64,000 nt of DNA, taken from contig CM039008.1 of NCBI GenBank assembly GCA_017499595.2, forward strand, positions 1,922,001 through 1,986,000. The letters are read 5' to 3'. The DNA is from Psilocybe cubensis (taxonomy: Eukaryota). The notes under the pieces are model-generated. The model had not been told where the DNA came from and did no database searches. It saw only the letters and a program-made list of their open reading frames with translations. Positions 11,825 to 54,626 of this stretch are shown one piece after another. The position numbers and the translations under genes are program-made. The stretch's first letter is position 1, and the number at the start of each line of letters is the position of its first letter.

Positions 11825-11840
11825 GATAAGGTGGGCAAAA
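11825..11840. promoter_or_regulatory. 16-bp motif GATAAGGTGGGCAAAA upstream of P450 copy 1 (contains a GATA core)
   Basis: An identical 16-mer is at 27675-27690 upstream of the paralogue; function is inferred. Confidence 0.4.
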
Positions 11841-21165: not shown

Positions 21166-21623
21166 TTCGAGAAAGAAAGTCGTTCTTTTTGAAGACAAAG
21201 CAATGATATTAGCAATGGGCAGGCAAACGGGCAATAGATGGGATGGCGAGTTACCACTGGTGGCTCAGTGTATGTCCGGGCTCGAATATTCCTAAGCCAC
21301 CGAGTGGTGAATATTGAATAGTGATAGGATGGTGGGGGTTAGGAAGCGGAGTGCGTACTTAGTTGAGTTTTATAGCTTGTGTTTGGTTGACAGGTAAGTT
21401 GAAGTGCCATTGATTTAGGGTCCATATTCAAATTGTTGATTTGGGGCACGCGTTTACGCGTTCAACCACGTGACTTATTCGTCTTTCTGCGAATGTCCTG
21501 CTTGGCCCATTTGATTTGCTTAATTACTTCGAAGTCAAAAAGCTTAAAGGTGCTTTTAATCGTCTCGTTGACAAAATCACGCAAATCGCCCAGCTTCTCG
21601 ACAACTCTCATTAATATTTATAC

Positions 21624-34282: not shown

Positions 34283-34437
34283 TGTTACGGTCAAGGACAC
34301 AGAGAACGAACAACGAGGATTTTCGATGAGCAAACGATGCGCGTTGTTTCGACAAAGGAACCCAAGACCTATGCTACAAGGAATAAAGCTAGGAATGAAA
34401 CAAGGCACGTGCTACGGTACGGTACGTGATCATAACA
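34283..34437 (-). repeat. 3' LTR (155 bp)
   Basis: TGTTACGG...GATCATAACA, direct repeat of 40116-40270. Confidence 0.95.
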
Positions 34438-34451
34438 TCATCCCCCTTTTT
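34438..34451 (-). other. Polypurine tract AAAAAGGGGGATGA
   Basis: Purine run immediately upstream of the 3' LTR on the element's sense strand. Confidence 0.85.
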
Positions 34452-37400
34452 ATGCGGGAGTGTAACGAATGGGCGGTTTAGAAACGCGACCAGAACGAAG
34501 GGTAGTGGTAGGAGCTGGAACATAATTTGAACGAAGGTTTTGGCGAACGATGGGAGGTGAAATAGGACGAATTGGATGAATAATATCAGTTGAGACTGTA
34601 TCTACGAGTGACCGTTTTTGAAAAGAAGAATCAAAAGAAAGGGAATGTGAAATTGGTGCAGGGGTGGCCAGGGCTTCATCGGCAGGGGCATGGGCAGCGG
34701 CAGAGGACGCGGGAGCAAGGTCTTCTTCGGCAGGGGCAGCAGCAAGCGAGGGAGCAGCGGGCAAGCGGGCAGGAGGGTCTTCTTCGGCCATCTGTGAATT
34801 AAACAAAGAATTGTCAGTACGTAAAACAGTTTCGGGGTCGTTAAACGATTGTTGAATTATAATAGGATGGGGGCGAGGTGAACGAGGATGTCGACGATGG
34901 AATTTGTCAATTAATTCATTGAATGTTGTCGGAATGTCAGAAAGAGGGATCCAAGAGTTTTCGGAGTCGGGTAAGTCACGCCATCGTACGAGATATTCAT
35001 AACGATGACCGATTTTACGACAGTCGAGAATATGAGAGATGGAAAGGGCGGGGTCAGCGAGATTAAATGGTTCAGGATCGGAATGGGGATGGAATTCAGA
35101 AGGGTCGGAATAGGGTTCGAGGAGTGAAGTATGAAAGACGGGATGAAGGCGAGAGAGATAAGAAGGGAGCTTGAGAAGGTAGGATTGATTTCCAACTTCC
35201 CGGATGACAGGGTAAGGTCCGAGACGTCGGTGGTCGAGTTTAAGTGAAGGACGGGTGGTGCGAATGTTGCGGCGAAGCAACCATACGAGTTGGTCAGGTT
35301 GATAAGAGGGTGATGGTAGGACATGTTGATTAAAGTATTTTGATTGTTTTTCTTGCGAAAACTGAAGTTCTGCACGAAGCTCTTGATGAATCTGGTCCAA
35401 ACGTTGAGCCAGATCGGCGGCGGCAGGGACAGATGAGTCTTCGGAGAGTTTGGGTTCGAAAGTGGGGTGAAAGGCATAGTTAGCGAAGAAAGGTGTTTGT
35501 TTTGTTGAAGAGTTTTCGGAGTTATTGAATACAAATTCTGCAAGAGGTAAGTAATCGACCCAGTCATCCTGCTGGTAAGAGCAATAAGCACGTAGGTAAG
35601 TCTCAAGCGTCTGGTTGGTACGCTCAGTCAAACCATCGGTGCGAGGATGAAAGGCAGTGGATGTCCGAACATCGACATCGAGCCTTGTCATTAGTTCTTT
35701 CCAAAAGTGCGAAATAAATTGTGCACCACGGTCTGAGACAATCGAGTCCGGAAGACCGTGATAACGAAAGATTCGATCCACGAATATCCACGCCAAATCT
35801 GGCGCAGACGTGGACTCGACGCACGGAATAAAGTGTGCGGCACGAGTTAAACGATCACAAACAACAAAAATTGAATCATACCCATGGGATTTCGGTAGCT
35901 TGACGATGAAATCCATCGATATCGACTTCCACGGGCGATTTGGAATGTCGAGAGGCTGGAGGATACCGTATGGTTTGTGTCGAGGAGCCTTGATACGACC
36001 ACAGGTATCACACGCAGCAACATAGCGGCGGATATACGTGTTGACGCCAGGCCATGAATAATCGCGCATAACCTTGTTCATAGTGAGAGCACGGCCAGGG
36101 TGTCCACCAAGAACACAGTCATGACGTTGATAGACGATTTCTTGACGTAACGACTTGGGTACGTACACACGACCTTTATGGAAAACCATATTGTCATGCA
36201 CCACAAAGTCACGATCGCCTCGAAGAACAGCTTCGCGCCACTCGATGTCTTCACGAAACGCAGATTTGAAGCGTTCCAAGAGTTCGGAGTTGTCGACATT
36301 GAGTGTTGTGAGGCCGGCGGAAGAAGGCAGAATTGAAATAGCATTGATAGAAGCGATATAATCTGTAGCATCAGAGGGAAAAATGCGTTCGGTATGAATA
36401 TGTGTCAGTAAAGCTTGGTGCTGGTGCATCAAGACGTCATCCCCCTTTTTAGGAAAGAAATCGGGGCGCCGTGAAGGAGCATCAGCCACGTTCTGAGCAC
36501 CAGGCAACCAGTCCAAACGAAAGTCAAAATCAGAAAGAAACATAGACCATCGTGCTTGACGACGATTAAGAAGATAAGAAGACATAAAATACTCAAGATT
36601 TCGATGATCACAGCGTACGACTACTGGCTGTGCAGTACCCATAAGCCATGGTCGCATGTCCCGAAATGAATCCACAATAGCGAGAAGTTCTTTATCGTGA
36701 ACTTCGTAGTTGATTTCAGCGGGACTGAACTTGCGAGAGTGAAACGCAACCGGATGTAGATGACCGTCTTCATCTGGCTGTTGTAAAACACCAGATAAAG
36801 CGAAATCGGAAGCGTCAGTGCATAGCGTAGCAGGCTTTGCAGGATTGAAATGTCGTAGAACCGGGTAAGACGTGAATACTCGTTTAAGCTTTTCGAAAGC
36901 TTGCCGTTCGACATCTGTAAAATCGAACTTAACGTTCTTGCGAGTTAGTCGGTTCAACGGAAGAGTGATTTCGGCGTAATGGTCAACAAAACGTCGATAA
37001 AAATTTGTAAACCCAAGAAAAGATTGAATGTCATGAACAGAATGAGGAACCGGCCAATCAGCTATTGTGGCGAGCTTCTTGGGGTTCATTTTGATGCCGT
37101 CAGCACCAATAATATAACCCAGGTACTCAACTTCCGTTTTGTCAAACTCACACTTCTTCGCGTTAGCGAAAAGATGCGAGTCACGGAGACGGTCGAGAAC
37201 AAGCTTGACATGTGCGTCGTGCTCTTCCTGAGTGCGAGAAAAAATAAGAATATCATCCAAATAAACAACACAAAACACGCCAATGAAATCGCGTAATGTG
37301 TCCTGAATAAAAGCTTGAAAAACTGAAGGAGCGTTAGTCAAACCAAAAGGCATAACGAGATATTCGTAAAGGCCGAGAGAAGTGCGAAAAGCAGTCTTCC

Positions 37401-38859
37401 ACTCGTCGCCTTCGCGAATGCGAATAAGATTGAAAGCATTCTTCAGGTCAATGACCGTGAAAAGCTTACAACCTTGGGTACAATCAAGCAAATCATCAAT
37501 ATGCGGGAGAGGATACCTATTCTTTTTTGTGATAGCATTGAGGCCTCGATAATCGACACAGAGGCGTAAATCTCCAGTCTTCTTCTTGACAAACAAAATC
37601 GGAGAAGCGGCGGGTGAAGTCAAGCGTCGAATAAAGCCTTTTTTCACCTGATCATCAATATACTCTGCTAAGGCTTTCTGCTCGTTCTGAGTGAGACGAT
37701 ACATAGGCCCAAACGGAAGATCCTTCCCCTCTTCGATCTCGATCGCACAATCGTACGAACGATGAGGTGGCAGGTTGTTGACTTCGGTGGGAGAGAAGAC
37801 CGAATTTGCCCACGGTATGTACTTGGTGGGAATATATTTTTCGAATTCGGAAGGTGACGGTACACTTGGAGGGTCGAGAATGTCGTCCAAAAGTGACTGT
37901 TCGGATGACATAGTGGCGGCTACATATGCAGGGGAGCCAGCCGGGTGGTAACGCAGCATTGCAAAAGGTGTATTCTTCGCACACTTGCGGAAACGATGAG
38001 AGTTAATGGTGGCCACATTGATTTTGCGACCGGGCAATGGGTTATTGAGGGTGGAGCGACCGTAGCCAGTCCAACGAGTGAGGAAATTGAGAAATGAAGG
38101 CGTAGACGAGGCGGAAGTTTGAAGTTGAAATTTGGGTTCTGAAGTTTGAACTGAAGGATCAATAGAACGAGACGAAAACATAGTACCGCGATGTAGACCG
38201 AAGCCTAAACCGGTAGTGGTAATTGAACACTCATGTAGAGCATTCCGAGGACGAGAAAGATGCTCGAGACCGAAGCCTCTTGCCGAAACGGTAACAGAAG
38301 TCATAGGAGTAAGATTACAACAAGAAAGAGTAAGATCCGGATTCATCCAATCCACATCAGGATTGTGACGCCGAAGCCAATCAAGTCCAAGAATTAAAGG
38401 AAACGCAACGGAAACAACACTAAGAGCAATACGCTCTTTATGTTTATCAACACACAATTCAGAAATAATATCCTGAGTAACGAGACCAGAAGCAATAGGA
38501 CGGTCGTCCACTGCAAGAATAGGAACCGGTATATCTTTTGTGCGACGCGGCAATGAGTGCCGTGCACTAAAGACGTCCGAAATACATGAAGCAGTAGCTC
38601 CAGAATCAATTAACGCATAAGTGTGAATCGGTTTACGATTCGGAAATCGAAGAATAACATTAATAAAAAAATGATGCGGAGAATCAGAATAATGAGAGGC
38701 AGCAAAAACATAACGCGGAGACGGATAACGAGAAAAAGTTGTCCACGACCCGTTATTGAGCCGGGCGTGAATGGGCTCCGAATCGGAAACATGATGAGTC
38801 CCAACATCTGCATCCGGTAGCCCTGGGACTGTTAAAGAGCTACCGGCTAGGCTTTTCCC
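34450..38859 (-). CDS. pol: Pol polyprotein (aspartic protease, reverse transcriptase, RNase H, integrase, chromodomain) in the -1 frame relative to gag
   Basis: The frame is open upstream of the listed ORF and includes ALIDSGAT (protease); YLDD (RT); TDASD..ELLAIV..DH (RNase H); HDCVLGGH..CDTC, MDFI..SDRG..TERTN (integrase); GPY; ILDCRKIGHRYEYLVRW..NSW (chromodomain). Confidence 0.95.
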   Translation of the reverse strand, partial: GKSLAGSSLTVPGLPDADVGTHHVSDSEPIHARLNNGSWTTFSRYPSPRYVFAASHYSDSPHHFFINVILRFPNRKPIHTYALIDSGATASCISDVFSARHSLPRRTKDIPVPILAVDDRPIASGLVTQDIISELCVDKHKERIALSVVSVAFPLILGLDWLRRHNPDVDWMNPDLTLSCCNLTPMTSVTVSARGFGLEHLSRPRNALHECSITTTGLGFGLHRGTMFSSRSIDPSVQTSEPKFQLQTSASSTPSFLNFLTRWTGYGRSTLNNPLPGRKINVATINSHRFRKCAKNTPFAMLRYHPAGSPAYVAATMSSEQSLLDDILDPPSVPSPSEFEKYIPTKYIPWANSVFSPTEVNNLPPHRSYDCAIEIEEGKDLPFGPMYRLTQNEQKALAEYIDDQVKKGFIRRLTSPAASPILFVKKKTGDLRLCVDYRGLNAITKKNRYPLPHIDDLLDCTQGCKLFTVIDLKNAFNLIRIREGDEWKTAFRTSLGLYEYLVMPFGLTNAPSVFQAFIQDTLRDFIGVFCVVYLDDILIFSRTQEEHDAHVKLVLDRLRDSHLFANAKKCEFDKTEVEYLGYIIGADGIKMNPKKLATIADWPVPHSVHDIQSFLGFTNFYRRFVDHYAEITLPLNRLTRKNVKFDFTDVERQAFEKLKRVFTSYPVLRHFNPAKPATLCTDASDFALSGVLQQPDEDGHLHPVAFHSRKFSPAEINYEVHDKELLAIVDSFRDMRPWLMGTAQPVVVRCDHRNLEYFMSSYLLNRRQARWSMFLSDFDFRLDWLPGAQNVADAPSRRPDFFPKKGDDVLMHQHQALLTHIHTERIFPSDATDYIASINAISILPSSAGLTTLNVDNSELLERFKSAFREDIEWREAVLRGDRDFVVHDNMVFHKGRVYVPKSLRQEIVYQRHDCVLGGHPGRALTMNKVMRDYSWPGVNTYIRRYVAACDTCGRIKAPRHKPYGILQPLDIPNRPWKSISMDFIVKLPKSHGYDSIFVVCDRLTRAAHFIPCVESTSAPDLAWIFVDRIFRYHGLPDSIVSDRGAQFISHFWKELMTRLDVDVRTSTAFHPRTDGLTERTNQTLETYLRAYCSYQQDDWVDYLPLAEFVFNNSENSSTKQTPFFANYAFHPTFEPKLSEDSSVPAAADLAQRLDQIHQELRAELQFSQEKQSKYFNQHVLPSPSYQPDQLVWLLRRNIRTTRPSLKLDHRRLGPYPVIREVGNQSYLLKLPSYLSRLHPVFHTSLLEPYSDPSEFHPHSDPEPFNLADPALSISHILDCRKIGHRYEYLVRWRDLPDSENSWIPLSDIPTTFNELIDKFHRRHPRSPRPHPIIIQQSFNDPETVLRTDNSLFNSQMAEEDPPARLPAAPSLAAAPAEEDLAPASSAAAHAPADEALATPAPISHSLSFDSSFQKRSLVDTVSTDIIHPIRPISPPIVRQNLRSNYVPAPTTTLRSGRVSKPPIRYTPA

Positions 38860-40010
38860 GAAGGATCAGCCTTGCCTTTACCCTTGTCCTTGTATTTTTT
38901 CTTTGCATACTCGGACATATTAGGGCAACGAGACGCTGGATGACCTCCTTTGCCACAGTAATAGCAAAGATGAAGATCTGTACGGCGCTTACGTTCAGCA
39001 TCCGTAATAGGACCACGATGCATAGCATCAACCTCCATAGGAACAACATCATTGTTCGAAGACGTCGACGCAACAGGAGCTGACGTAGCGGGTTGCGAAG
39101 AAACATAAGAACGTGAAGAATTTGCCAAACTTGCCTTGTCAAAAATCGACTTAGCGGGACCTGCACGTCGCTCGAGAACACAACGGTGCAGCTTGTTGTC
39201 AATGGAAATGACCATCTTGACATAATCGTCAAAGACGGTTGGGGCATCATTGACAGTGGTAATTGTAATCGCATCCTTGACCGTGTCCTTAAGACCGTCG
39301 TAGAACATTTGAATGGTAGTTTGATCTGTCAGATCTAACTCCCAAACGAGTTCACGGAAACGCGATGCATAAGTAGCAGCGGATCCGTCTTGCTTCAGCT
39401 TTCGCAACTGTGCAAGAGCTGTCGCATAGCGATCACTGTCTTCGAAGTGCTTTTTAAAAGCCTTCAGAAAAGCATCATAGCTCTCAAAGAGCTCGGGGTG
39501 ATACTTTTCCATTGACGTATACCATGCACTCGGTGATCCATCCTCGAGATAGAAACCTAAGTACAGGCATTTGTCTCGATCGGATTCAAAAGCAGCACGT
39601 TGTAAATGAAGAGCATTATTGATTTCACGTACGAAAGAGTCGACGTGTTGAGCACGTCCGTCAAACTTCTTAGGCTCTCGAACACGGATTGTTGCAGACG
39701 GTTTCGAAGAGCCTGACGACGAAGTCGTCGCAGCGCGATTCACGTTCAGTTGTTCGGCAATGAGTTTGAAAGCCTGATGGCTTTCGTTGGCTTCGTGGCT
39801 TTGACGGTTGGCGATGTGTTCGAGATTTTGACCAAGACTGAAAATGGCGCGCCAGAGAAAAGTGCGCTCATCTTCGGGTGTCGGGTTGCCAGTAGGACCA
39901 GGATTATCGACGTAAGGCACCTGACCAGGCTGCTGTTGAGCATTAGCAGCACTGGCAGTGAACTCGGGGAGGATTTCGAAGGAATTGTTGAAAGCGGGAT
40001 TGTGAGACAT
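38847..40010 (-). CDS. gag: Gag (capsid + CCHC zinc knuckle)
   Basis: EPKKFDG, LRKLKQDGSAATYASRFREL, FYDGLK, PMEVDA, CYYCGKGGHPASRC. Confidence 0.95.
   Translation of the reverse strand: MSHNPAFNNSFEILPEFTASAANAQQQPGQVPYVDNPGPTGNPTPEDERTFLWRAIFSLGQNLEHIANRQSHEANESHQAFKLIAEQLNVNRAATTSSSGSSKPSATIRVREPKKFDGRAQHVDSFVREINNALHLQRAAFESDRDKCLYLGFYLEDGSPSAWYTSMEKYHPELFESYDAFLKAFKKHFEDSDRYATALAQLRKLKQDGSAATYASRFRELVWELDLTDQTTIQMFYDGLKDTVKDAITITTVNDAPTVFDDYVKMVISIDNKLHRCVLERRAGPAKSIFDKASLANSSRSYVSSQPATSAPVASTSSNNDVVPMEVDAMHRGPITDAERKRRTDLHLCYYCGKGGHPASRCPNMSEYAKKKYKDKGKGKADPSGKA
38853..38859 (-). other. Putative -1 ribosomal frameshift heptamer G GGA AAA
   Basis: X XXY YYZ pattern in the gag frame two codons before the gag TAG; a -1 slip enters the open pol frame. 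Confidence 0.75.
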
Positions 40011-40103
40011 TGTTGATGTGGCAAATAACCGGGCCGCGAACGACCGGAAGATAACGAAGGTTGATAAACAAGGATAAGATAAGAACTAGAAGAGATTTAT
40101 GTG

Positions 40104-40113
40104 GTCGAAACAA
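40104..40113 (-). other. Self-priming primer-binding site (Tf1-like), complementary to LTR sequence 40177-40186
   Basis: Sense strand reads TTGTTTCGAC 2 nt after the 5' LTR, the exact reverse complement of GTCGAAACAA inside the LTR; there is no TGG tRNA-type PBS. Confidence 0.75.
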
Positions 40114-40115
40114 AC

Positions 40116-40270
40116 TGTTACGGTCAAGAACACAGAGAACGAACAACGAGGATTTTCGATGAGCAAACGATGCGCGTTGTTTCGACAAAGGAACCCAAGA
40201 CCTATGCTACAAGGAATAAAGCTAGGAATGAAACAAGGCACGTGCTACGGTACGGTACGTGATCATAACA
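40116..40270 (-). repeat. 5' LTR (155 bp as read; the true terminal CA is displaced to 40617-40618 by the MITE)
   Basis: Matches 34283-34437 except AAGAAC vs AAGGAC. Confidence 0.93.
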
Positions 40271-40613
40271 CGCCGGACAAAAATGCTGACCAGTTAGCCT
40301 GGGTGTTGTCCTGACCAGTGATGTGACTAGTACCGTGACCAATTACATACTGTCACACATATGTTGTCACGCTAAGTCATTATTAGTAGGCTCAACAGTA
40401 AATAGCATATTACTTGATTTTTAATATTTCGTCTTACTCCGCACTGAGTTCCAACGCAAGACAATCAAGTAATTTGCCATTTACTGTCGAGCCTACTAAT
40501 AATGAATTAGCGTGACAGCATATGTGTGACACTATGTAATTGGTCACGGTACTAGTCACGTCACTGGTCAGGACAACACCCAGGCTAACTGGTCAGCATT
40601 TTTGTCCGGCGTG
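40269..40613. mobile_element. 345-bp foldback MITE with 151-bp inverted arms and TAA target duplication
   Basis: CACGCCGGACAAAAATGCTG... (40269-40419) vs reverse complement of 40463-40613, 7 mismatches counted by eye; 43-nt spacer; TAA at 40266-40268 and 40614-40616. Confidence 0.92.
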
Positions 40614-41149
40614 TAACAGTAGGCCCGATACTGGTGCTTGTGGGTTAAAAATTAAAAAAGAAAATAAAAAAAGAAAATACAAAAAAGGAAAGAGAAGGAG
40701 GGAAGGGAGGGAACGAATTCACCCTTCATTTCATACTACTAACATCGTTACTACACTGTTAGTATCTAACATATCAGTGGTTCGCATTGCTTCACGATTA
40801 GCCGGCTTGGTTCAACTCGGCTAAACTCTTGATTCTCGCTTAGATGAACAAAAATACACGAAAAATAAATCAAACATGGTAAGAGCCCCGAATACATTTC
40901 ATGGAATCTGATGCTCGCTTACGATTTGACCTCGCATAGATAGCACTGTGCAACGGTTAGATGAAGGTGCGCACATCTCCGACGCCAAGGCAAAGGACTT
41001 AGCTGGAAACTGCAACAATTCACAGCAGGGCACCAACAACGCCCACCCGCCGTTCCCGCCGTGATTCCCCAACCCACACCAGCAACAACACCCAGAAAAT
41101 CGAATTGAATACGCGTTGCCGACGCATCCACCATCCCCATGCTCATCAG

Positions 41150-42060
41150 CCGCGTCCCCCATCCATTCCCAGGCTCGTCAAAACTAAACACCGCGCTTCC
41201 CACTTCGAAGACGACGCGCTCGCGTCACGTTGGGGCTCTTGACGACTTGAACGTGCTTTGCCGACGCGTTCACCACCCATTCCCGTCCTCGTCAAGGCTA
41301 TCCACCGCGCTTCGTGCCTCGAAAACGATGTGCTCGGATGATGTTGAGGGTTCTTGGCAAGGTTAGTGTCACTGACAGCCTCCATATGATGCTGTACTCA
41401 CCATACCACACTCATACACACCCAGCAAGTCGTATCGAACACGTTTCAATGCCTCTCTACACCCCGCCTCCCAAACTGGCCGTGCTCATCTTACAAAACA
41501 TCGTCGCTGTGCTTCCCGCTACGAAAACGCCATGCCGGTGAGATTTCTTCTCAAGGTGAGTGACCCCGACAACCTCTTTAAATTTTAGTGCCATACTCAC
41601 CAACATAACCAGCTCGTTCATGGCCAGCTAGGCACGATGAGCCTGAACACGCTGCGACAACGCGTCCTCTATCCCTTCCCGCAGATCCGCGTGTGGGGCT
41701 GTTGTCAAGGTTAGGGTCGTTGACAGCCTCTATCTCACCATACCCAACTCGTACGTCTCTGCACATGTACGTGTGTTCCACGTAGTGACGTGCTCGTCTC
41801 GCAGATGAACTCGTCGCTGCGCTTCCCGATTCAAAAACACCACGATTTCTTCTCAAGGTTAGTGACCCCATCGAAGTCTTTTTACTGGCACGCTGTGTTG
41901 ATGCGTCCAAGTCTTCTATCCATCCCTGCACATCCAATTGTGTCCGCCACGAAATTAACACCCATGAAGTCACATCCTTGAACAAAGCATTCCTGCACTT
42001 TCGCATGGTGTGTCCCTTGAAAACGATGCGCGTCAAGGTTAGTGATGGTGTTGACCACAT
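41150..42060. repeat. Degenerate tandem repeat array (~115 bp and ~310-350 bp periodicities)
   Basis: Recurring CAAGGTTAG, GATTTCTTCTCAAGGT(G/T)AGTGACCCC (~41543, ~41845), TGACAGCCTC..CTCACCATACC (~41373, ~41722) and CCATTCCC..CTCGTCAA..CACCGCGCTTC (~41163, ~41277). Confidence 0.65.
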
Positions 42061-42493
42061 TTGAAGAATGCTCACCAAGAAAAACACGGACCCTCGCATC
42101 CAGACCCACTGACCGCATCATTCTCACGTTGACGGCCGGTGTGGTAAGTGCCGTCTCACACGAAAAGTGATTCTGGACACTTGGGCATGCTGATGCGTAA
42201 AACGCGCTCCTTGGGATGGGCAGATTGATGTTTGTGGTGTTCATGAGGGACACATAGCCTGCTGTGCAGGTGAGGGGTTGAGGGTGCTAATTGGGCGAAA
42301 AGGGAAGGATGATCGAAGACGCGGTAGCTAGAGGATCAACTCTGGTAATGTTTGAGGGTTTCTGAAACTTGTTCTAGATTACGGACAAATAATAAGGAGT
42401 ACAGTAAGTGATTTATTAATTTTATAGCAAGTTGTAGTACTAATTTCAATGGTTTCTACTATTACATGAATGAAATCCAGATGTCATGAGCAT

Positions 42494-45400
42494 TTAGGTC
42501 AGTTTAGGCCATCGCTCCTCGGGAACATCTACCCATCCCACATAACAAGGCTTGTCAGGTCGCTTGGTGTACCGACCTTTGCATTTGACATTTCCACAAT
42601 CACGACAACGGTTGTGGCAATGCTTGACCCGTTGGCGACCCGAACATTGTGTGGAGCCGCATTTTGCACAGGTACGAGGCCGTTTTCCCTTATCTAAAGC
42701 GTGCGATCGTTGAATCTGTTCACGCACACGTTTCTCAGACAGTGCTTCGCGATTTACACGATTGTGTACTGCAAGATTTGTCGCGGTAGTAAAGGTTTTT
42801 CGAGTTGTTGAGTGGGGCAGCAAAAGGTCGGAATTTGCACTTTGCAACGGTGTCTGTTGGTCATCGTGTACAGGTGTGTCTTTGTTGTTACCATGCACCT
42901 CTGAACGATTTGTATTAAAGGTTCCAACAGAAACGGACGTTGGAAGAAGTCCGTCATCGACACTCAGTGGTTTCAGAGTTTTCTCTGGTACACGGGGTGC
43001 CGTTACTGAGCGAGATGGGTTGCTAAGGATTGCTGCCAATGGTTTCCGAATGTCATATGTTGTAAAAAGAGACTCTTTAACATTGAGGTTTGTTTTCCAA
43101 TGTGCATAGTACGATTTTAATTGTTCAATTAACTGCAGTAAATGAATATTAGGATACTAGTCATGTTTAAGCTATTTTGTGCTTACCTTGTATGATATCT
43201 CTGAATTGATATCAGCGTAGTGATTCCAGACCTTCACGGCCTTTTTCCAGATTGGGCCGGATGTCAGAGAGTTGTAGTCGGGATTGGCTTGCATAAGATC
43301 TCGGAAAAGCTGCTTTTCAATGTCGTTATGAATCGGAAGAATGGGCTTTCGTGTGTGTTGCATTTGAGCTAGAAAAGCATGACGTTGCTTTTTGTCAATG
43401 CTAGGAATAAATTCAGACATCCCAGTTGCAATGCGAATGCTGGTTGGAATCGGAAGAATGCCTAACGTTTCGGTGGTAGGAATGTATAGGTTTCCGTTAA
43501 CCCATCCAGTAATTTCCACGGGATTTATTAGAACATCGTGAAGAAATGACAATCGCTCCTGAATGCTGTTGGTTAACCAGATTGAGAAATGGCTGCGATA
43601 CTTTTGTCCAGTGCTATTGAATGTTCCAACCTAACAAAACAGTTTAATATGATAGAGTAAGTAACAGTAGATATGGTCTTTCTTACCACAAGGTTGTGGT
43701 GCAGAGTGAAATCAGCAAGGCATGAGTAAACATGTTGCACTGATGCACCCGACGATGGAAGATGTGATCTAAGATGAGTATGTACTCCACCCTCTGTCAT
43801 GTTTGTTCCACGAAAACATCGATAGATAGTGAGACTTGGTGCTGCACTATCAATCCCTATTGCCGCATAGAGAGGAATTCCGGGTGGATCAGATATAAAA
43901 CCGCGTCGTGTCAAATCAAGAATATGGCCCGAGGTCTTCCAATCATTAAAGTTAAACAAAGGAGCACCTGTTGTAGCATCTTTGAGGGGGCCAAAAGTTT
44001 CAAAAACCTTCTTTAGCAATCCATGCAGTATGTCAGCTGGTGGAATGATTCGTTTACATCGTTTCCATAACCAGCGTGGACGAAGCTTTTGGATTTGCTC
44101 AAAAGTCAATGGTGGTGTTTGCATTGCGCCCCATGCACTAATTTTGGCACGGTCTTCACCGTCAGGAATAAATATTGCATCCCGAAGCTGTCGGGCAAAC
44201 TCTGCACGTAAACCATGTGTTGAGGAGATATGAAACATGTTGAAAACATGGAAAACGTCTTTGAGGACCCGGCTCCGAATTGTACTGTCCCAGGTATTTG
44301 GATACTGGTCCAGTACTTGTTGGCCTAACGATGCACTTTCTGGGTCAATATTGCGAGGATGGTCTGTGGTTATAGGAGGTGCACTAGTAGGCCGATGATT
44401 TTCAACAACAAGATTTCCGATTGAAGGAATTGAATCATCATCAAAAGTTGCATCAAGTGAGAGGTCGTTATCATCCAACTCTGCCAAGCTGGCAGTCAAT
44501 AGATCCTGATTGGATGACTGATCTAGAGACATAGGGCTTGTTTGAGCTCTAGAAGACGAGTCCGACTGACTTGAATGATGTGTCCAAAATGTTGGCGAAA
44601 AGGTCTTTAAATGACTTCGTAAACAGACAAGAGTAAATGGTGGTGTCCCAAATGATGCAAGTGAACAGTTCCGATGACTGCTGATTAGTGCACCAGGGAC
44701 AAATACTTCTTCAATGTCGACAGCAGTTCTTGTAGTAGTAATATTGATGCCATCGAGTTGCCTATCATCTTTGTGGGATGAAATTTTTCCTCGAGCAATC
44801 ACAGATGCCTTGTCGGTGTTGAATAAGAGAACAGGAATGCCTGCATTAAATTGAGAAGGAAGAACTTGCGGTGTTTCAAGAGTCGAAAGTTTGTTGTAAA
44901 TGCATATACAAGCATATGCATCACAGGCTGCATAGGCGAGTTGATCGCGAGTAAGGATTTCATTTTCCCAAGCACTGCTAATGCGCTCGGGAACGTTTTT
45001 GTTTAATCGTTTTCCCAAAACCAATGCACATAGATCAGCCAAACTGCATCGTGCGGAAGATATTACCATTTTGTCTTTTGCATATTTGGCAAGGTCAAGA
45101 GCGCCAACAAAAGGTTTGGGTGACTGGGAAGCAGTTTGAAGATGCTTTAAATCGGCTTCAACAAGCCGTCCAGCTTTCACAATATTTGGATTTTCCAATA
45201 AAATCCTAAGCTGACTTGGAAGTGTACCGCCTGCTAACATATCACCAATCTAATCAGAATTTTATTAGTTTACATTTAATCATTGGTTTAAGTAGCTTAT
45301 ACATTACCTGAAGAATGTATATGGATGATTTATATGCTATTTGAATAATAGCTGTTTGTCCTCGATGCAGAATATGGCCATTAGATGATACTTCAACATT

Positions 45401-45708
45401 CCACTCGGAATCAAACCCTATCACGATTTTTTTGTCAGGATGACTTGGATCAAGATCATCAAGAATAGAGGCCATGGCAGCGTCTATGGCAGACGCTGTG
45501 CTTTTTACAAAAATAGCAATAGGCGGTGTCGGTACGGCAAGTGGTTCAAGATCTGGATACTTTTCAACTGGTACCACAGACTCTCGAAGAGACGGCCAGG
45601 CATCTTCAAGGAATGCCTTGTCACTGGCAACGTTATCTGTAAATGCAAGCTTGGGTTCGGAATGACCATACATCTTGAGTGAGTGAAGCATTTGCTTGAG
45701 TGCGAGCT
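42494..45708 (-). CDS. Transposase-like protein with embedded WRN-type DEDDy 3'-5' exonuclease and C-terminal Cys cluster; 5' part lost in the assembly gap
   Basis: The spliced frame (3 introns) is open from the gap to 42494: AFTDN; exonuclease IGFDSEW, ADL, YAACDA; RVLKDVFH; YRCFRGTNMTEGGVH; CAKC..C..CHNRCRDC..C..C. Confidence 0.75.
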
Positions 45709-45808
45709 NNNNNNNNNNNNNNNNNNNNNNNNNNNNNNNNNNNNNNNNNNNNNNNNNNNNNNNNNNNNNNNNNNNNNNNNNNNNNNNNNNNNNNNNNNNN
45801 NNNNNNNN
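45709..45808. other. Assembly gap (100 N)
   Basis: Run of exactly 100 N, a typical unknown-size placeholder. Confidence 0.99.
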
Positions 45809-48800
45809 CAATCTAGACAATTGGCCCGCCGGCGTCTTCTGGTATTTTGCAGTTGCACGCGACGGTTCTAGAACCTGTACATTGTACTTACTACATGTAG
45901 ATTGTATACATATATGATGGGTTTATGCAGTACTATAGTTAAAGGTGCTGCGGAGCGAGGTCTGGTCTGGACTCTTGAATCTCTGGATTGCAGAGGATTC
46001 CGCAAAGTCTTTTGCTCCTTTTTTCCTTCCCGTCACGATATGGTTGCGGTTGTTGGTTGCAATTGGAATCGCACAAAGTTTGAAATAAAATTGCAAGTTT
46101 GCAAGTTTGGAATATCGGGCATCTGCCATCCAGTCGAACGTCCAGCAAATCAAAATTCTGACGTCTGACGACCTTTAAAAGTTGATCCTCCCTGATTTTC
46201 CCGCATCGTATACTTCTCATGCTTCTGGTTCTCCCGTTCCTTGCCATCGTCAAATTATCCATCAAACCATCAAATTAAAGCCATCACCGTCATCAAACCA
46301 CATCATCATCATCAACATCAATGCGCGAGTTTAGCACAGATCCCGAACACAGCCTCCCGGGTGTTTTCACTGACGCATTCACCCAGAACGCCAGAAGCTG
46401 CCAAAGTCAGATTTTTAGAATTTGATTTTTGGAGTTTAGATATTAGATATTATCTGATCGCTCGGCGGGACTTGAGGGTCCAGGACGCGGGACGCAGGAG
46501 CTGCGAGAATGTACCAGAACAACAAGAACAATTGAAATCTTGCGCCGTGTGGGATTTTAGTTGGCATTGGGATTTGTATTTGGGTTCCATTGGGATTTAG
46601 ATCTGGGCTGGGATGGGGTTGGAATAATTGCGAGTTGGGTCGGGGGCGGCGCCGGGCGGACTCAGGTTCTTTCAAGAAGACACAAGCAGGAAGGTGAAAG
46701 GGAACGACAGCGAAATGGCTACAGTGATGGAAGGGAATAGGGGACGGAGACGGGTGGCATGTCACTCAAGCAAAAGAGGAGGCTAGGGAGAGAAAATTCA
46801 AGAGAGATCAAGAAAAAACGAGGGAGCCAAAGTTGCAGGTTCAAGCGATGTCGGTCTCAATTTCCTCGACGTGGACAGTCTAGTGAAAATGGGAAGCTTG
46901 CTTGCTTACTGGCCGGGTAAAAGTAAAAAGGCTAGATACTAGATCTGAAATGGGACATCGAGTCCAGTTACCAAAGTCAATATACACCGCAACGCATCGC
47001 TCCGCGATGTGTCCAATGTGAATTCAGGGCGGAGCGGGGCAAGTTCTTGACACTGACAGAGATATTGATAGTAGTTGAGTACCTGAGAAACCTGAGTAGG
47101 TTTGTATGTGAGTATGGTATATACACTTTCGCACCGCATTTGTTGACATTGGATTTCGAGGGTGAAATTGTTTTTGTAGGATGTGAATTCAGCTCCAAAT
47201 TTAATATTGGACACTCGATGTTAGATATTCAAAGCTTGATGCTTGATAGCCAAAGCTTGATTTGCGATGTGCGCGGCTTCGAAGGTACAAAGGTGCGCAC
47301 GAAGACGGACATTACGACGTAAAAGTACGCGTACATAGTATGTCATTTCTTGATGTCGATGCACAGCCATGGAGGACTGGGGCCAAAGGATAAGAATAGA
47401 ATAGCGTAGAGTAGAATTCAATAGAATGGAATAATGATAGGGGCGAGCAGGTCGGCAGGGAACAGAAGTACAATGTCATGGAATAGATGGCGCCTCCGAC
47501 CCTGACACGCTTTGCCTGCTCGCACGACCCTGCGAGGGTTGTCCAGTAAAAGTACGGACATGTACGTACGTGTGCTCAAGTGACCCGTCCCGTCAACCGA
47601 ATCTTCGGAGCTGCTAAGGTCGATGGGATAGAAATTAGGATACGATTGGGGGAGGGGGAATCACGATCATTGATGATCATAATGATGCTGATGCTGATGT
47701 CTATACCTAGGATTCGGACTTCCGAGTGATTACTCACTAATCAGGATCGCATCGAATCGAGGAATCGAGGACTGCGGACAAGGGACAAATGGAAGGAGAC
47801 TAGACGAAAAGGCTGTGCTCGCGCGCCCGCGTGCGCGTGAGCGCTCACGGACCGATGCGAGGTTGCATTCTGGGTGCCCTGGCGAGAGCACCGCGATTGC
47901 AAAATGGGTGGTGCATGCATAACTATAAGCTGCAATAGTGTTGCCTTCCCATTCCGTCGATCTGAGGTGTCCTGCGCTGCACGGCACGGGCACATAGTAT
48001 TAATACATATAGCATGACGTGCTCCTGCATGATTGTGCCTTTTAGTGTATACTGTTATTGTAGGCCTTGCATGAGTGCGCCTGTTTGATACCTGGGAGTC
48101 AGTCGGAGTTGATGATCGAGACTTGAACAAGGTGGAGCGTCGTTGCAGTCCCGGTTGGGGCGCGCGTGGTGCACTGTGGATTAATTGGATTTGGTATTCC
48201 GCAACGCGCCGTAGGAGACGTCGGCTCTGCCGCGGCAGAAGTGGTGTTCGGCATGCACGGCGTGGTTGTAGGATGGTTGGTTGGTGGATGGTTATTGTAG
48301 ATAGATTTGGGTGGCATGGGATGGAAGTGTGCTTAATGAGCAGTACAGATGTAGATGCAAATCGGTTGGACACCGAGTCAGCGACGAATTGATAGGATTG
48401 TCCGCTTGGCTCCTTTACGAGAGGTTGTTGATGGCGGTGTGATTTGCATTGCCTGTGAATTTGTAGTGGTGATGGCGACCAAGTTGGACGAGGAGCGGGG
48501 GGGTGAAAGGTATATTGTTTGTGGGTGGATTGGGGATTATAGATTTTTGTGCGGGAAATGAGGAGGTGCGGGTTGTAACTCGGATTAGAATGTAACTTGG
48601 ATGGATTACATTTACGGAGAGCAGCTGGGGGAACGGGGATCTGGGAAATCGGGATGCGGCAGGCACGGGATTCAGGATGGCAACGGTAACCCCGGATAAA
48701 GTAGCGGGCCTTGAACCCGACTTTGTACCATTGGGACAGCGCAGAATTTTAAGTGGAAAAGCACTATCGCCCCTCCGTCCATCTCACAAGTTTCCAACCC

Positions 48801-49011
48801 CACCACACCTCTGCCTGCACCATTCACGACTCACGACAAACACGACTGCAGGTGCGTATTTTCATCGGAGGCATATCAGCACATGCACGCACTGACCACG
48901 CGGCCTCTAGAGATTAGTTTATCCGAAGGCACCTTCGCAGCTCTATCGTCGCCCCATCGATTTTTTCTGGATAGTGTAGCCGCAAGCCGCCAGCGAACGC
49001 AGCACCGATCC

Positions 49012-52000
49012 ATGTCGACATTCAGCACCATGCAGCGTCCACACCACGACCAGCAGTCCCAACAGCAGTCGCGGGTGTACGCCTCCTTCACCGAATCTAT
49101 ATCGAACCCGTCGTCAACCCATTCGTCCCCACGAACCTTTCCTTCCGATCTCGATGCCTTTTACCCCGCACACCAGCTCGGCATTAACAGTGGGAGCGGA
49201 GGAAGCAATGTCGGGACCAGCAGTAGCAGCAGTGGGAGTGGCATGCACAGCCATATAAGCCACCTGCAGCACTCGCAGACGTACCCTCTCCCAGCGGGCA
49301 CGCAGATGCACCCATACATTCCCGCCCATCAGCGGCGGCCCCCGCTTCCGCACCAGAATACGCACCCTCATGCGCCCTTCCACCACCTACACCAGGGGCA
49401 GGGACAGCAGTACTCGCAAACGCACATGCAGCCGAGCCGTAGCTCGTCGTACTCGTCGACGTACACCGCACCGATGCCACTGCAGGTGAGCACGTCGTCG
49501 AGCTCCGTCACGCAGTCTGAGCACGATCCGAACGAACGAACGGCGAGACCGGGTAATGCGCATGTTCATACTCAATTCCATCAGGCGTTAAGTGCCGCTG
49601 CGGCGGCGGCATCAGGATCGGGAGGCGGCATATCGGTGACGGGGGCGGGGGCGGTAGATGCCGAAGGGGCGGGAGCGGGGTCGGGGGCGGGGATGGCGCA
49701 GGAGCGTGCCGAAGACGGCGGCGGCCGGGGCGGCAGCAGCGCAGAAATTTGTGCGGAGACAAACCAAATTTCCTCATCATCACGCCCCTCGTCGTCACAC
49801 TCACGCCCGTCCACGTCACACTCGCGCTCGTCGTCGTCCGCGTCGCCACCACAAGCTCAACAGCAGCAACAGCAAGACTACACAGCAAGCACCCCGGGCC
49901 TCTCCGCGGGGCTCAGCCGACCCCTCAAACCCATTGAGCAAGAACGGCTCGCGCATTTAGACAGGCTAAAGTTTTTCCTCGCCACTGCACCGTCGTCGTG
50001 GGATGCCGCCGCGAAGGCGTCTGGATCTTCTTCTGGGTCGTCATCTTCAGAGGGGGAGTTTGCGTACGGAGGCGGGGGAAATGGCGGGTTCTCCGGTATG
50101 GGCGGGGCACTCAGTATGAACTCAAACTTGGGTCTCGGTATGCCCCTAGTCGAACCCGCATATCATCACGCTCCGCCGCACCCAGCGCTCAACCGCTTCC
50201 TGCTGCCCAACCAGGAGTTCGTGACGTGTGTGCTTTGGAATGGGCTGTACCATATTACGGGCACGGATATCGTGCGTGCGCTCGTCTTTCGGTTCGAGGT
50301 GGGTGATCGTTTTCATGTTTTCCTTTTTTTTTCCTCTTCCCTTCCTTTTTTTCTTTTTTTTTGCCTTTCCATTTCTTTTGAGGGGCTAGGTCACCTCTGG
50401 CGCAGTGTCTGTGTTTCTTTCGTGGGACAAAATTTGGGTGGTTTTTCAGTGATTTGAGATAGGGGTTTCGAGTACACCAAGGTTAAGGAGCGACGAGCGA
50501 GACGTCCTACTCGTCGTTGGAGCGGAGATCAGGGGTCTGCGGGTCTTTTCGGGTGAATGGTTGGCTGATTAGATGGTTTTTGCGGCGGGTGGTGACGGTT
50601 AATGGGGTTGGGGTTTGTGTTTGTGTTTATGCCTGTGGATTCGTGTTTGCGCTTATGGGTTTATGTTGGCACTGGACAACCGACGATGGAGCTGGATTTT
50701 CGGGCGGCGTTTGCGCTTATGTATTTGGTTGTTTGTGTTTGTGGGTTCAACTGCACATTGGGACATCGGATTGTTCATCCGAAAGACTGTCTTTCGATCT
50801 TTAGTTTTAGAACATTGAAGCTGTGTTTCTGAGGGGAAATTTTGTTGACTTCGTTTTTTTTCAAACATTTTATTTTCTTTTATTTTTCTTTTGTTCTATA
50901 GCCTCTGAAGGGTGGGTGCCTCCCTTGGCGTAGATTTGCCTAACTACCTACTACGCTCCTGTAGCGTATTTTCTGTCCTTGATCTACTTCTACACCACGG
51001 CGGGCCCTCACGTCCCCCCCCTCGAGGCCCAGCCTCTCCGGGCTCTTAGCAGTAGCATCTCTACCGTGTGGGCAGGCTGTTTCCCTTGCCTGTAACTTCC
51101 TACATTGACTTGTGATTTTGTTTTCATGGTCTTTGCTTCTCATGTTTTCCCCTTCTATTTTTCGAATTTTTTTTGCTGGAGATCAAATTTCTTTTTTCTG
51201 GCTGGTGTTTATCATGTTGGTGGGATTGTATTGCCATGGCGGACCGGGACTAGATGGCAAAGCAACGGACTTGTTGGAACTCTTTTTTAACTTTTTTGAT
51301 CTTTTTCTTGTTAGAATTTTTTTTTAATCCTTTGCTTTCTTTTTGTGGACGATCAAAGTCCATTTTTATTTTATTTCTGTGAACGTTTAGCTGACTATCT
51401 TTTGTGTTCTGCGTACAGGCATTCGGTCGGCCAGTGAGGAACATGAAGAAATTCGAGGAGGGTGTGTTCAGCGATCTGCGCAATCTGAAGCCGGGCGTCG
51501 ATGCTTGTCTCGAAGAGCCAAAGGTAAGTCCGTCATTCATGCCTTTACTTTTGTTTCGTACGCTCCTATTTTATGTGTTTGCTCTTTTTGTTTTGCTTTT
51601 CACATTTTGGATGGTGAGAGGTGGGAGAGAGAAGGAAACAGTCTGTAGATAAGGATCATACATATGTTCTGGTGTTGAAGGACACACCGATTGGGTGTTG
51701 TTTTTGTTCCGTCCGAGTGTTCGTACATGGCGGAAGCGTGTGCGCCTCCGAAGAGAAGAGAAGGCGGGATATAATATTTTGTTTCATTAATTACGTTTTT
51801 TCATTTCATTTTCATTTTCAAATTTCCCCGATTTAATTTCTGATCCGCATTTTTGTTCCTCGCAGAGTCCCTTCCTCGACTTGCTCTTCAAGTATCAATG
51901 CATTCGCACGCAGAAGAAGCAGAAGGTCTTTTACTGGTAAATTTTCCTTGAGCTTCTCTCATTTCCTCCATTGCCCCATCTCTGCATATCTACATCTACA

Positions 52001-54626
52001 CACCCTTGTTTACACTCGCTAACCAATCCTACTCACCAGGTTCTCCGTCCCACATGACCGCCTCTTCCTCGACGCGCTCGAGCGCGACCTTAAACGCGAG
52101 AAGATGGGTCTCGAGCCCACAACACAGGTAGTCGGCGAGCCCGCGCTCTCATTCACATACGACTCCAAACGGAGCCTGTACGAGCAATTCAGCAAGGCTC
52201 AGGGTGTGCGAGACGGCGAGGGCGAGTTGGAGACGAGCTTGAGGATTGCGGAGGATGGATCAGGTGTGGGTGGGCAGGGAGTAGGTGCGGGTGCGAGTGA
52301 TGGAGCTGAGGGGTCCGGGTCGGTGTCGGGGGACAACAGCGACGCACACATGCACGATGAGAGCGAGAGTGAGAGCGTCGACGACTCCGGTATGACCGGC
52401 GGCGAGGAGAGCGACGCTGCCGGCAGCAGTGGGGCCCATCGTACGCTGAAGCGGCGCTCGGGTGCACCGAACGGCCACCCGTTCTTCACGAACATACCGC
52501 TATTTGAGGGCAGCCCGACGTACAAGCAGCGCAGGAAGAAGGGTACCAAGGGTGGGAGTATGTTGAGGAAGGGCAGTGAAGACTACCCGGACGAGTTTGA
52601 GCGAGGGCGTAGTGTTGGGCTTGGAGGTGTTGGTGTGGGTTTGGGTGCTGGTATTGGCACAGACAGGATGGGTAGCGTGAGCCGCGAGCGCGGTGCTCGT
52701 CCCCCGAAGCACCCAAGTATGCTTCACGAATTTGGCCCTGGCTCGGAAGATGCCAAGGCTCAGGAGATGGCGGAGATGAGCGCCGCGGATATGTTTCTCA
52801 AGCAAGCAAGAGGTCAACTCGTGCCCGGCGATGGTGTGGTGCGCAAACCGAAGCCGCAATATGTTGCGGGGAATGTGAGCGTTGTGTACCACCATGATGG
52901 AAGTGTGCAGCAGGCGCAGCAGCAGATGCAGCGTGGACAAGGCCAACAACAGCATGCCCGCCGAGCGAGTGCGGATGTCGGGTCACCCGACTTTAGCGAC
53001 CCCGACGGGAGCGAAGGCCCCATTTCGGCGTCATATATGCAAACAACATTCGACCCCAGTACCATTGCACCACCCGCGACAGGACAGACTCAGCAACAGC
53101 AGCAAGGACTGACGAGCATATCACAGTACGACGCAGCATCGCCGGACGGCAAGGTGCGCGCATTCGTGTGCCCGCTTTACTCGTGTCAACGGCTTTTCAA
53201 ACGAATGGAGCATTTGAAGCGGCACCTACGTACGCACACGCTCGAACGCCCCTTTTCGTGTACACGCTGCGGGAAGAAGTTCTCAAGGAGTGATAATTTG
53301 ACACAGCACCTGCGCACGCACGAGCGCACGGGGCATGGCGCTGCGGACTCGGTTGCGGGTGGTGCAGGCGCAGGCGCAGGTGGGGACCCGATTAACTGGA
53401 TGGAACCGGAGAATCCGGTGGTTGAGGGAGAGGGCAGCACCGGCGGTAGTCCTGGACAAAGTATGCCGGGCGGGGAGGACGATGGGGCAATGCCTGATAT
53501 GCTGGACTTTGGCGCTGGGGGCAACGGGATCGTTATGTTTGGCGGGGAGGAGGCAGGGCTAGGTCGGATGGTGGGGATAGATATGAACGTGCCGTATGAC
53601 ATAGACATGCATGGGTTCTCCAGCGATCAGCTTGACGAGAGAATGTGCGAGGTCGAGGTCCCCGGTGGTGTGCGCGATGTTCAGGGTGATGAGGAGGGCG
53701 AGGTGATGCGTATGGGCGGTGTCGAGCCGTCTCTCGTGTTTAGGCAGCAGCAGCAACAGATGCCTGGCTCCGAGTTCCCGTTTGTCAGCCAGCCGTCGTC
53801 AGATTTCTCCGACGGACAGTGGGCGACGCGCCCGACGAGCACGCACGGCTCACCCGCAGGTGGGTTCGCGCGTATGTACCACACCCATTCCTCCTCCTCG
53901 TCCCAGTCGTCTAATTTTGGCGAAGATTTCGGGCTCGCGTCGCTCTCTGCGCCGTCGCACCGGCAAAGCTTCGATCATGCAGGATTGTACCCACCGAACC
54001 TGCTTGAAGGAGGCGGGATCGGGCCTGTGAGACGGCACAGGAGCATGACACCGTCACTTGCGCGCAACGGCGAGCCCATCCGCCGTCCGATGACCGCCAA
54101 TAGCAGCGATCTTCAAGGTGTAGGTGGTGGATCACCTGGGAGCGTCTCGTCGATGAACTCGAACGGCGGCGCAGGAGCACGGGGGTACCACCCATACTAC
54201 AGCAACAACAACTCGCGCGCCAACTCGACACACAACAGCCCGCAGGTGCACTCCATCCCGCTTGGAGGTGAGTTGGCAGCTGGACGGCCTGGATCGCGTG
54301 GGTCGAGCTACGGCGGTGTGAGCGGGCTGCATGAGCAGATGCGGCAGATGATGAGCATGGATGGCGGAGGTTCAGGCGCGGGTGCGACTGGATCTGTGTT
54401 TGGGGAGAACGCGTTTAGGACGGGCTCGCCTGCGTCCTTCCACCAAACCGAGTCCCCTGGAACGTTCAGCATCGATTTACCGTTGCAATACACGGGCTCG
54501 CCTGGTTTCAACCCAGCGCAGCAACAAGTTTTGCACGCGGCGACGATGCCTCAGTTTGGCTCCAGCCAGCAGCAGCAGTATGATGGATATTATCACAATG
54601 TCCAGCAGCCACATGCAACGCTTTAA
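49012..54626 (+). CDS. STE12: STE12-like transcription factor (STE domain + two C2H2 zinc fingers); exons 49012-50298, 51419-51523, 51866-51936, 52040-54626
   Basis: [142 protein letters not shown]. The start could be an upstream in-frame ATG (48883). Confidence 0.95.

Follow-up and report, generated by a model that had tools for sequence, protein, structure and literature searches.

An exonuclease-bearing transposase gene of Psilocybe cubensis and the element that carries it

What is an exonuclease of the kind found in the Werner syndrome protein (WRN) doing inside an apparent transposase? The question is raised by a gene on the minus strand of a 64,000-nucleotide stretch of Psilocybe cubensis contig CM039008.1 (hereafter, the window), which an earlier note, made from the letters alone, had singled out as a DDE-type transposase with a 3'-5' exonuclease in its catalytic core. 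We are confident that the gene belongs to a cut-and-paste transposon that is autonomous and was active recently, and that falls in the exonuclease-bearing lineage typified by Dada-1_LB and Dada-2_LB. The protein architecture has been known since 2013 (Kojima and Jurka, 2013; PMC3706591); what is modestly new lies at the DNA level, namely terminal inverted repeats (TIRs), an 8-bp target-site duplication (TSD), no fixed target and a head-to-head pair of copies.

The transposase and its inserted exonuclease

The part of the gene that lies in the window has four exons; with the three GT-AG introns between them (58, 56 and 54 nt) removed, they give one open frame of 1,014 amino acids (aa). The frame is an exact match to residues 588–1601 of the spliced database protein P0001 (1,601 aa), labelled 'Werner syndrome ATP-dependent helicase-like protein [Psilocybe cubensis]'.

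45308–45708, minus strand: exon with the second catalytic Asp (FTDN, D611, 45637–45635) and the start of the exonuclease (D686 at 45412, E688 at 45406)
43687–45249, minus strand: exon with the remaining exonuclease, a conserved beta-rich domain, a disordered linker, DxxH (44259–44248) and E1206 (43794–43792); its 3' splice joint occurs in run X9
43187–43630, minus strand: third exon in the window, conserved C-terminal region
42494–43132, minus strand: last exon, with a Cys-rich cluster (42670–42545) and the stop codon
44887–45427, minus strand: WRN-type DEDDy 3'-5' exonuclease domain (P0001 682–842), split by the 58-nt intron at 45250–45307

The spliced frame read in the earlier note, with FTDN, a DEDDy exonuclease, KDVFH, TEG and a Cys cluster, is present with every motif in its place (ADL Asp, 45153; YAACD, 44934–44920; KDVFH, 44259–44248; TEG Glu, 43794). 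In P0001 the DDE residues are D541 (the Asp of ALDHSHK), D611 and E1206, the DxxH is D1051xxH1054, and the exonuclease residues D686, E688, D753, Y826 and D830 are intact between D611 and the DxxH. The first Asp, which the note had assigned to a gap of Ns, does lie outside the window but is not lost, being read from other copies as D541.

Pfam places DUF6729 at 307–517 of P0001 (E 1.3e-18) and the exonuclease, DNA_pol_A_exo1 (PF01612), at 682–842 (E 2.6e-15). A MULE transposase match (PF10551, 569–628) is sub-threshold (E 0.058; 14.3 bits vs a cut-off of 27.6). No helicase, RecQ or HRDC family is among the Pfam matches of P0001, nor is KDZ or CxC, both of which the same library detects in another element of the window. 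The N-terminal part carries GRP (AT-hook-like) motifs and a CCCC zinc finger (C351, C354, C386 and C389, with C-x2-C spacing) that is coded in the 5' half of the gene, outside the window.

The catalytic residues are widely kept. In an alignment of 113 homologues, mostly from Agaricales with other basidiomycetes and Mucorales, D541 is conserved in 103, D611 in 106, D1051 and H1054 each in 109 and E1206 in 101; the exonuclease D/E/D/Y/D residues are retained in 103, 105, 102, 105 and 104. A full D-D-DxxH-E set is found in 87 homologues, 76 of which keep DEDD, while 10 have it changed and one has no exonuclease domain. A Cys-only C-terminal cluster occurs in 39 of the 113, many of the others being partial gene models.

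Two homologues were modelled: P0109, which has no exonuclease (predicted local distance difference test, pLDDT, 78.7; predicted TM score, pTM, 0.79), and P0077, which is full (pLDDT 79.7, pTM 0.63). The best match of P0109 is the IS256-family transposase ISCth4, an RNase H core with a helical insertion domain (Z 13.7, root-mean-square deviation [rmsd] 3.3, 271 residues aligned; Foldseek E 4.5e-4), followed by integrases, TnsB, Hermes and the P element. Residues 328–485 of P0077 align with the WRN exonuclease 2e6l (Z 16.7, rmsd 2.3, 136 aligned), and its range 226–869, which spans the insertion, aligns with the integrase core 1asu (Z 9.2, rmsd 3.8, 133 aligned). In both models the first Asp ends a core strand, the second follows a strand and the Glu starts a helix. 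A PDB sequence search with the family profile returned exonucleases only, WRN at E 2.9e-39, and no transposase. In the ESM Atlas the nearest neighbours of the core are mostly chordate DUF6729 clusters (feature score 0.95, TM score 0.81), with IS256 and MULE clusters at a TM score of 0.53. On these models the protein is predicted to be a DDE transposase of the C/DxxH class, with an RNase H core into which the exonuclease is inserted. The earlier note had anticipated both the class and the insertion between the second Asp and the DxxH with all catalytic residues present, which the alignment and Pfam bear out, and the fold comparison it proposed, with and without the exonuclease, agrees.

The low-complexity linker that the note described is present and disordered, but about 85 residues directly after the exonuclease (P0001 ~850–935, window ~44605–44862) are conserved and form a beta-rich domain that is confidently modelled in P0077. 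This domain is under purifying selection in a comparison of genome copies, and an ESM Atlas search with it gave no usable match.

Ends, copies and targets of the element

Aligning the genomic copies defined the ends of the element, which the earlier note could not find, and revealed 8-bp TSDs.

40622–45708, minus strand: 3' part (5,087 bp) of transposon copy B, here identical to copy C; the full element is 7,324 bp
40622–40641, no strand: 3' terminus, an imperfect TIR starting with GG that matches the 5' end at 13 of 20 bases
40614–40621, plus strand: 8-bp TSD TAACAGTA

The main exon has 12 protein matches across the genome (G000), three of which, all on contig C11, are 100% identical. Copies A (C11:601547-608870) and C (C11:2083240-2090563) are each 7,324 bp and 99.986% alike (7,327 bp compared). 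Sister families are represented by a pair on C12 and C3 (99.5% alike) and a pair on C1 and C8 (79% alike). At all six sites where two copies of this family or of these sister families align, an exact 8-bp TSD is present (CATCATTG, TAACAGTA, CATTTTTT, CGAAAACC, GTATTTGG and CTGCTAGT), and three further 8-bp sites belong to two non-autonomous copies and one old copy on C5; the length is thus 8 bp at nine of nine G000 sites with both ends located. Elements read GG...CC at their ends in all but the decayed C5 copy. Over 20 bases the TIRs match at 16–17 positions in the C12, C3 and C1 copies and at 13 in the window family, against a background of 306 mismatched flank pairs, none of which exceeds 13/20.

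Similar ends occur elsewhere. Among 34 metagenome loci, the 18 with long matches were scanned: one (L114) has a 16/20 TIR and the 8-bp TSD CTATTATA, and another, GC-rich and marine (L120), has a perfect 26-bp TIR and the 8-bp TSD GGCGGCTC. The ends of a third (L092) are ambiguous, lying inside a tandem repeat, and the remaining 15, many with short flanks, gave no TIR or TSD above background. A scan for the terminal motif with one mismatch allowed stayed at chance level (61 matches vs 75 in the control); when 14 candidate ends were probed, a TSD was found at only one within the DNA examined, and four of five re-examined sites had no second end. The C4 copy likewise yielded no second end; this relative (G000:C4:3487025-3493417) is broken by an element with 450-bp direct repeats.

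The insertion sites show no preference that we could detect. The six target sites have no mutual similarity, and ARAGORN at default settings finds no transfer RNA (tRNA) in any of the six rebuilt empty sites, a test that covers six of the nine G000 sites. Candidate tRNA targets from a low-threshold ARAGORN run (five predictions at four of the six empty sites) were rejected, all of them disappearing at default. Rfam returns no family at gathering score on 12 element flanks; its e-value matches at one locus, L032 (MIR4371 and mir-95), are below gathering and fall on the hairpin of a miniature inverted-repeat transposable element (MITE). Rfam and ARAGORN likewise find no match in the whole window, nor does ARAGORN on 16 or Rfam on 15 neighbouring loci.

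The insertion in the window is also polymorphic. The site is empty in samples X13, X14 and X6: none of the element is detected in X13, X6 holds it on a single 7,401-bp contig with a different flank, and X14 holds it at roughly five times the depth of the flank and with several other flanks (the sample contigs can attest presence but not absence, and depth is only approximate). As the earlier note had supposed, this is a transposon; near-identical dispersed copies, TSDs and empty sites show it to be mobile, multi-copy and recently active rather than a host gene.

It is apparently transcribed. In run X9, presumed to be RNA with its spliced joints as the sole support, since no listed run is recorded as RNA, two of the three transposase introns in the window are removed. 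The same run shows a second transcript in the 3' part of the element:

40849–42370 (limits approximate), plus strand: spliced transcript convergent with the transposase gene, with six GT-AG introns

This transcript is made of internal repeats, and all six of its joints are seen in X9. DNA 67–72% similar to it occurs at G000:C1:59004, C1:72204 and C2:4295005; compared with similar DNA at two loci (L043 and L045), it has no conserved frame.

Role of the exonuclease and relation to Dada

How might such an element move? The chemistry of IS256, MULE, hAT and P elements suggests the following steps. The short repeats at the termini would be bound by the N-terminal GRP motifs and zinc finger, and the DDE core would nick the DNA at the terminal CC-3'. 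The pair of 3'-OH ends would attack target DNA 8 bp apart, and gap repair by the host would yield the 8-bp duplication. The exonuclease could then trim free 3' DNA ends left by excision, either flanking donor DNA or overhangs, and so aid release or repair. On balance we favour this accessory role, the trimming of 3' DNA ends freed at excision, over an action on RNA (see below) and over other accessory roles, which share the remaining probability.

The exonuclease is under purifying selection between genome copies. Its nonsynonymous divergence (dN) is 0.086 against a synonymous divergence (dS) of 0.647 for the C1 and C8 copies, and between the F1 and C4 copies, for which synonymous sites are saturated, the proportion of nonsynonymous differences (pN) is 0.143 in the exonuclease, 0.139 in the DxxH-E core and 0.481 in the linker. 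Three proteins from Apophysomyces that have no exonuclease are nested among exonuclease-bearing ones (tree support 0.94), which suggests that the domain may be lost, though these could be faulty gene models; the tree (58 of 62 rows, midpoint-rooted, without named Dada) cannot order gain and loss of the exonuclease across the superfamily. The exonuclease is probably dispensable for the core chemistry, yet selection keeps it. A full-library search with the exonuclease-less P0109 recovered 3,258 cluster representatives at E ≤0.001; no relative was found in viral contigs. Two homologues (P0110 and P0112) keep D-D-DxxH-E and a 464-aa insertion, but the catalytic residues of their exonuclease and its Pfam match are gone. 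In a chytrid homologue (P0214) an OTU protease, the exonuclease and DUF6729 are repeated three times, and the ESM Atlas also holds an OTU + DUF6729 cluster.

The main alternative, which we hold rather unlikely, is that the element is as described and its exonuclease acts not on transposition intermediates but on RNA, trimming small RNAs or R-loops as counter-silencing cargo. RNA-acting enzymes are among its close relatives by structure and sequence (Nibbler/MUT-7 at Z 12.6, RNase D, RRP6, Egalitarian), its absence from the nested Apophysomyces proteins would fit cargo, and the convergent transcript could give double-stranded RNA if it overlaps the 3' untranslated region of the transposase, an overlap that is hypothetical. 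However, the best match by both sequence and fold is the WRN exonuclease (E 2.9e-39; Z 16.7), which is a DNA enzyme; fusion within the catalytic core places the exonuclease near DNA ends; and the exonuclease-less proteins are known from gene models alone and may be artefacts. Trimming of DNA ends thus stays the role we prefer, and an intact, polymorphic, transcribed element makes the proposal put forward in 2013 directly testable.

That proposal, that the Dada exonuclease likely processes cleaved 3' ends, accompanied the description of Dada elements from Laccaria bicolor and Ectocarpus in which a DEDDy exonuclease follows the second Asp and precedes the DxxH (Kojima and Jurka, 2013; PMC3706591). 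The insertion has therefore been in print since then, and the arrangement is not supported as the mark of an undescribed family. Where the ends and targets of the lineage are concerned, the note's 'poorly characterised' is apt; its suggestion that the element processes ends with its own nuclease stays conjectural. Dada-1_LB, Dada-2_LB and Dada-1_ES/Dada-1_Ec32 share with the element a DDE core with DxxH after the second Asp, the inserted exonuclease, an N-terminal CCCC finger and introns, and the Dada-1_LB representative is of similar length (~7.8 kb by the Table 1 coordinates of PMC3706591, against 7,324 bp). The exonuclease in P0001 has all four acidic residues and is close to that of Dada-1_LB (73 of 162 columns identical, ~45%, counted by eye from Fig. 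S1 of PMC3706591). Among 309 proteins, P0212, 40% identical to P0001 over 1,121 columns, is the sole carrier of the exact Dada-1_LB motif tested. The text of PMC3706591 states no ends, TSD or target for the exonuclease-bearing families; here the ends are defined, with GG...CC TIRs, an 8-bp TSD and no target preference seen. Literature searches, with Repbase entries, unseen supplements and subscription papers outside their scope, found no account of fungal Dada ends or TSDs and no bench test of the Dada exonuclease.

Dada as defined in PMC3706591 has 6–7-bp TSDs, no TIRs, tRNA, small nuclear RNA (snRNA) or 5S targets, and a C-terminal CCHC finger besides the CCCC finger. The target-specific elements of animals and Perkinsus (among them Dada-U6, -U1, -tL, -tA and -5S; PMC3706591, PMC8869645) resemble the element in their DDE core with DxxH, their N-terminal four-Cys finger and their D1–D2 spacing (68 in Dada-U6_DR vs 70 in P0001). 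They differ in having no exonuclease (D635 to E811 in Dada-U6_DR vs D611 to E1206 in P0001), in their C-terminal CCHC finger, in their fixed tRNA, snRNA and 5S sites with 6–7-bp TSDs and no TIRs, and, for Dada-U6_DR, in a first Cys pair spaced C-x4-C instead of C-x2-C. By its predicted protein we file the element under the Dada-LB type of lineage, not under target-specific Dada. In the available parts of later sources, 1,023 Dada from four fungal phyla are recognized by domain profile (Muszewska et al., 2017; PMC5751038), 6–7-bp TSDs and RNA-gene targets are restated in a paper that deals with fish (Kojima, 2022; PMC8869645), every Dada family is still described as target-specific in a 2026 review (PMC13565253), the exonuclease-bearing Dada-1_Ec32 is listed as incomplete with its TSD as '?' in a 2025 Ectocarpus study (PMC12477816), and the exonuclease goes unmentioned in PMC12730594. 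The ends, TSD length and untargeted insertion defined here for the lineage contradict the published definition of Dada, and database entries labelled WRN-like or DUF6729 are to be read as transposases.

Outside Dada, the WRN exonuclease (PDB 2e6l, 2fbt) has the same fold and DEDDy residues, with 33% identity in the homologue model, but here it sits within a transposase, and no RecQ helicase or HRDC is among the Pfam matches. ISCth4 (PDB 6xg8), of the IS256/MuDR group, is the best structural match of the core and comes from TIR-bounded, untargeted elements with long TSDs; it differs in its low identity (~11%) and in having no exonuclease insertion, and the Pfam match to MULE is below cut-off. 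At the DNA level the element behaves like MuDR and IS256. The TSDs of IS256 are 8–9 bp and those of MuDR about 9–10 bp.

It could be argued that these elements form an untargeted MuDR/IS256-like lineage of their own, whose link to the target-specific Dada of animals and Perkinsus is no more than a remote common origin. The TIRs, the 8-bp TSDs, the unrelated targets, the missing CCHC finger and the best fold match, an IS256-family enzyme, all point that way, and the 'peculiar features' for which the Repbase 2015 paper, in its available part, keeps Dada apart from MuDR (PMC4455052) seem to be missing here. We consider this improbable: it was on sequence grounds that the founders of the superfamily assigned the elements of Laccaria and Ectocarpus to Dada (PMC3706591), and the Atlas neighbours of the core, DUF6729 clusters of chordates that we infer to be animal Dada, are far closer than IS256 or MULE.

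Several points weigh against assigning the element to the Dada-1/2_LB lineage as an active transposon. Four Dada hallmarks are missing: the 6–7-bp TSD, the lack of a TIR, the small-RNA target and the C-terminal CCHC finger (C-x2-C-x8-10-H-x7-9-C in the last 200 aa), which occurs in 0 of the 113 homologues. Placement in the lineage uses layout and exonuclease, with the DDE-core sequences of named Dada outside the comparison, and the models are of homologues, not of P0001 itself. The TIR score of the window family equals the background maximum, so its ends rest on copy breakpoints. The transposase and exonuclease activities are predicted ones, and with many WRN-family relatives acting on RNA (Nibbler/MUT-7, RRP6 and RNase D among the matches) the substrate is ambiguous. 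Finally, the 5' half of copy B carries a substitution, D453N (see below), that could bear on its function.

With the Dada-LB assignment retained, a broader scenario is possible, which we offer tentatively. Exonuclease-bearing elements of fungi and of some algae and protists may be a large, active, untargeted branch that keeps an ancestral IS256/MuDR-like state, with the exonuclease at work in the transpososome, trimming the 3' ends of the donor; the TIR-less Dada that target RNA genes would then be derived and would have lost it. If true, the Dada superfamily would have to be redefined, and bench work could address a DDE transposase that processes ends with a nuclease of its own.

The head-to-head pair and its surroundings

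Copy B is cut short at the last base before a gap:

45709–45808, no strand: scaffold gap of 100 N

The copy stops at 45708, and the next base of the element lies at G000:C11:2092808, beside a second 100-N gap. From there its 5' half reads backwards to 2090572, inverted and 125 kb away, so that the 5' ends of copies B and C face each other across eight bases (G000:C11:2090564-2090571). These eight bases are TAACAGTA, the duplication found at both outer ends, reverse-complemented at the other end of copy C. Joining the left flank in the window to the far flank of copy C restores GTAGA, the 5-bp duplication of a neighbouring Ty3 element, and in runs X13, X14 and X6 the far flank of copy C is joined directly to the sequence on the left of the Ty3 element. 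The Ty3 element, a MITE and both transposon copies are therefore absent from the site in those runs, and the segment between the two gaps is flipped in this scaffold, which calls for a correction at a palindromic double insertion. The likeliest arrangement of copies B and C is a head-to-head double insertion of 14.6 kb in a single 8-bp target.

Long perfect palindromes are a known cause of assembly failure, and it might be asked whether the pair is an assembly artefact, with only one element at this target. The 125-kb segment is bounded on either side by a 100-N gap; the second junction stays open after the flip, since the first bases past the second gap already lie in the interior of a repeat of at least 9.6 kb; and read evidence at the pair is limited to the 3' side of copy C, short of the head-to-head junction itself. 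An artefact is nonetheless very unlikely. The 8-bp spacer is the duplication of both outer ends, the flanks of the two 3' ends are distinct, the break falls between two adjacent element bases, and the inverted 5' half has a substitution of its own, D453N. Exactly this change occurs in the full-length database protein P0313, so copy B has been seen whole by another annotation. Double insertions with a TSD at the junction are, moreover, documented for P elements in the available part of McGurk and Barbash (2018; PMC5932611), where they are typical of periods of high activity. There too, two copies share one target and the 8-bp duplication is kept at the junction; P elements belong to another superfamily, and their head-to-head pairs are rarer (8 of 85 strains vs 55 of 85 for head-to-tail).

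The database name implies a host gene for a WRN-like exonuclease, and a conserved, spliced exonuclease might suggest one, but this reading has practically no probability, being refuted by the empty sites and TSDs of near-identical dispersed copies, by the element's complete absence from X13 and by Pfam matches that hold no helicase family.

The repeat beyond the second gap, from G000:C11:2092909, has copies at C11:2009000-2018900, C6:3244500-3254400 and C15:158000-167900 that are 99.98–100% identical, and holds coiled-coil and low-complexity frames. In the window, the Ty3/gypsy retrotransposon occupies 34283–40621 on the minus strand, with long terminal repeats (LTRs) at 34283–34437 and 40116–40270 that are 99.4% identical, and the 5-bp duplication GTAGA. 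Its right end carries the MITE and the double transposon insertion in a stack, and in the three other samples the site lacks all of these elements.

40269–40613, no strand: palindromic MITE of 345 bp, flanked by TAA, in the last bases of the Ty3 LTR and outside the element

This MITE has perfect 40-bp terminal inverted repeats and some 20 similar copies genome-wide; we take its TAA flanks to be a PIF/Harbinger-type signature. Farther away, a KDZ transposase with a CxC2 cluster (21615–25355, plus strand; Pfam above cut-off) adjoins a divergent TET/JBP-like dioxygenase (19537–20442, minus strand; below cut-off), a known association. By eye, two mutually similar cytochrome P450-like gene pieces lie at 10019–11940 and 26860–27460 on the minus strand, and a gene for an STE12-like transcription factor with C2H2 fingers lies at 48715–54626.

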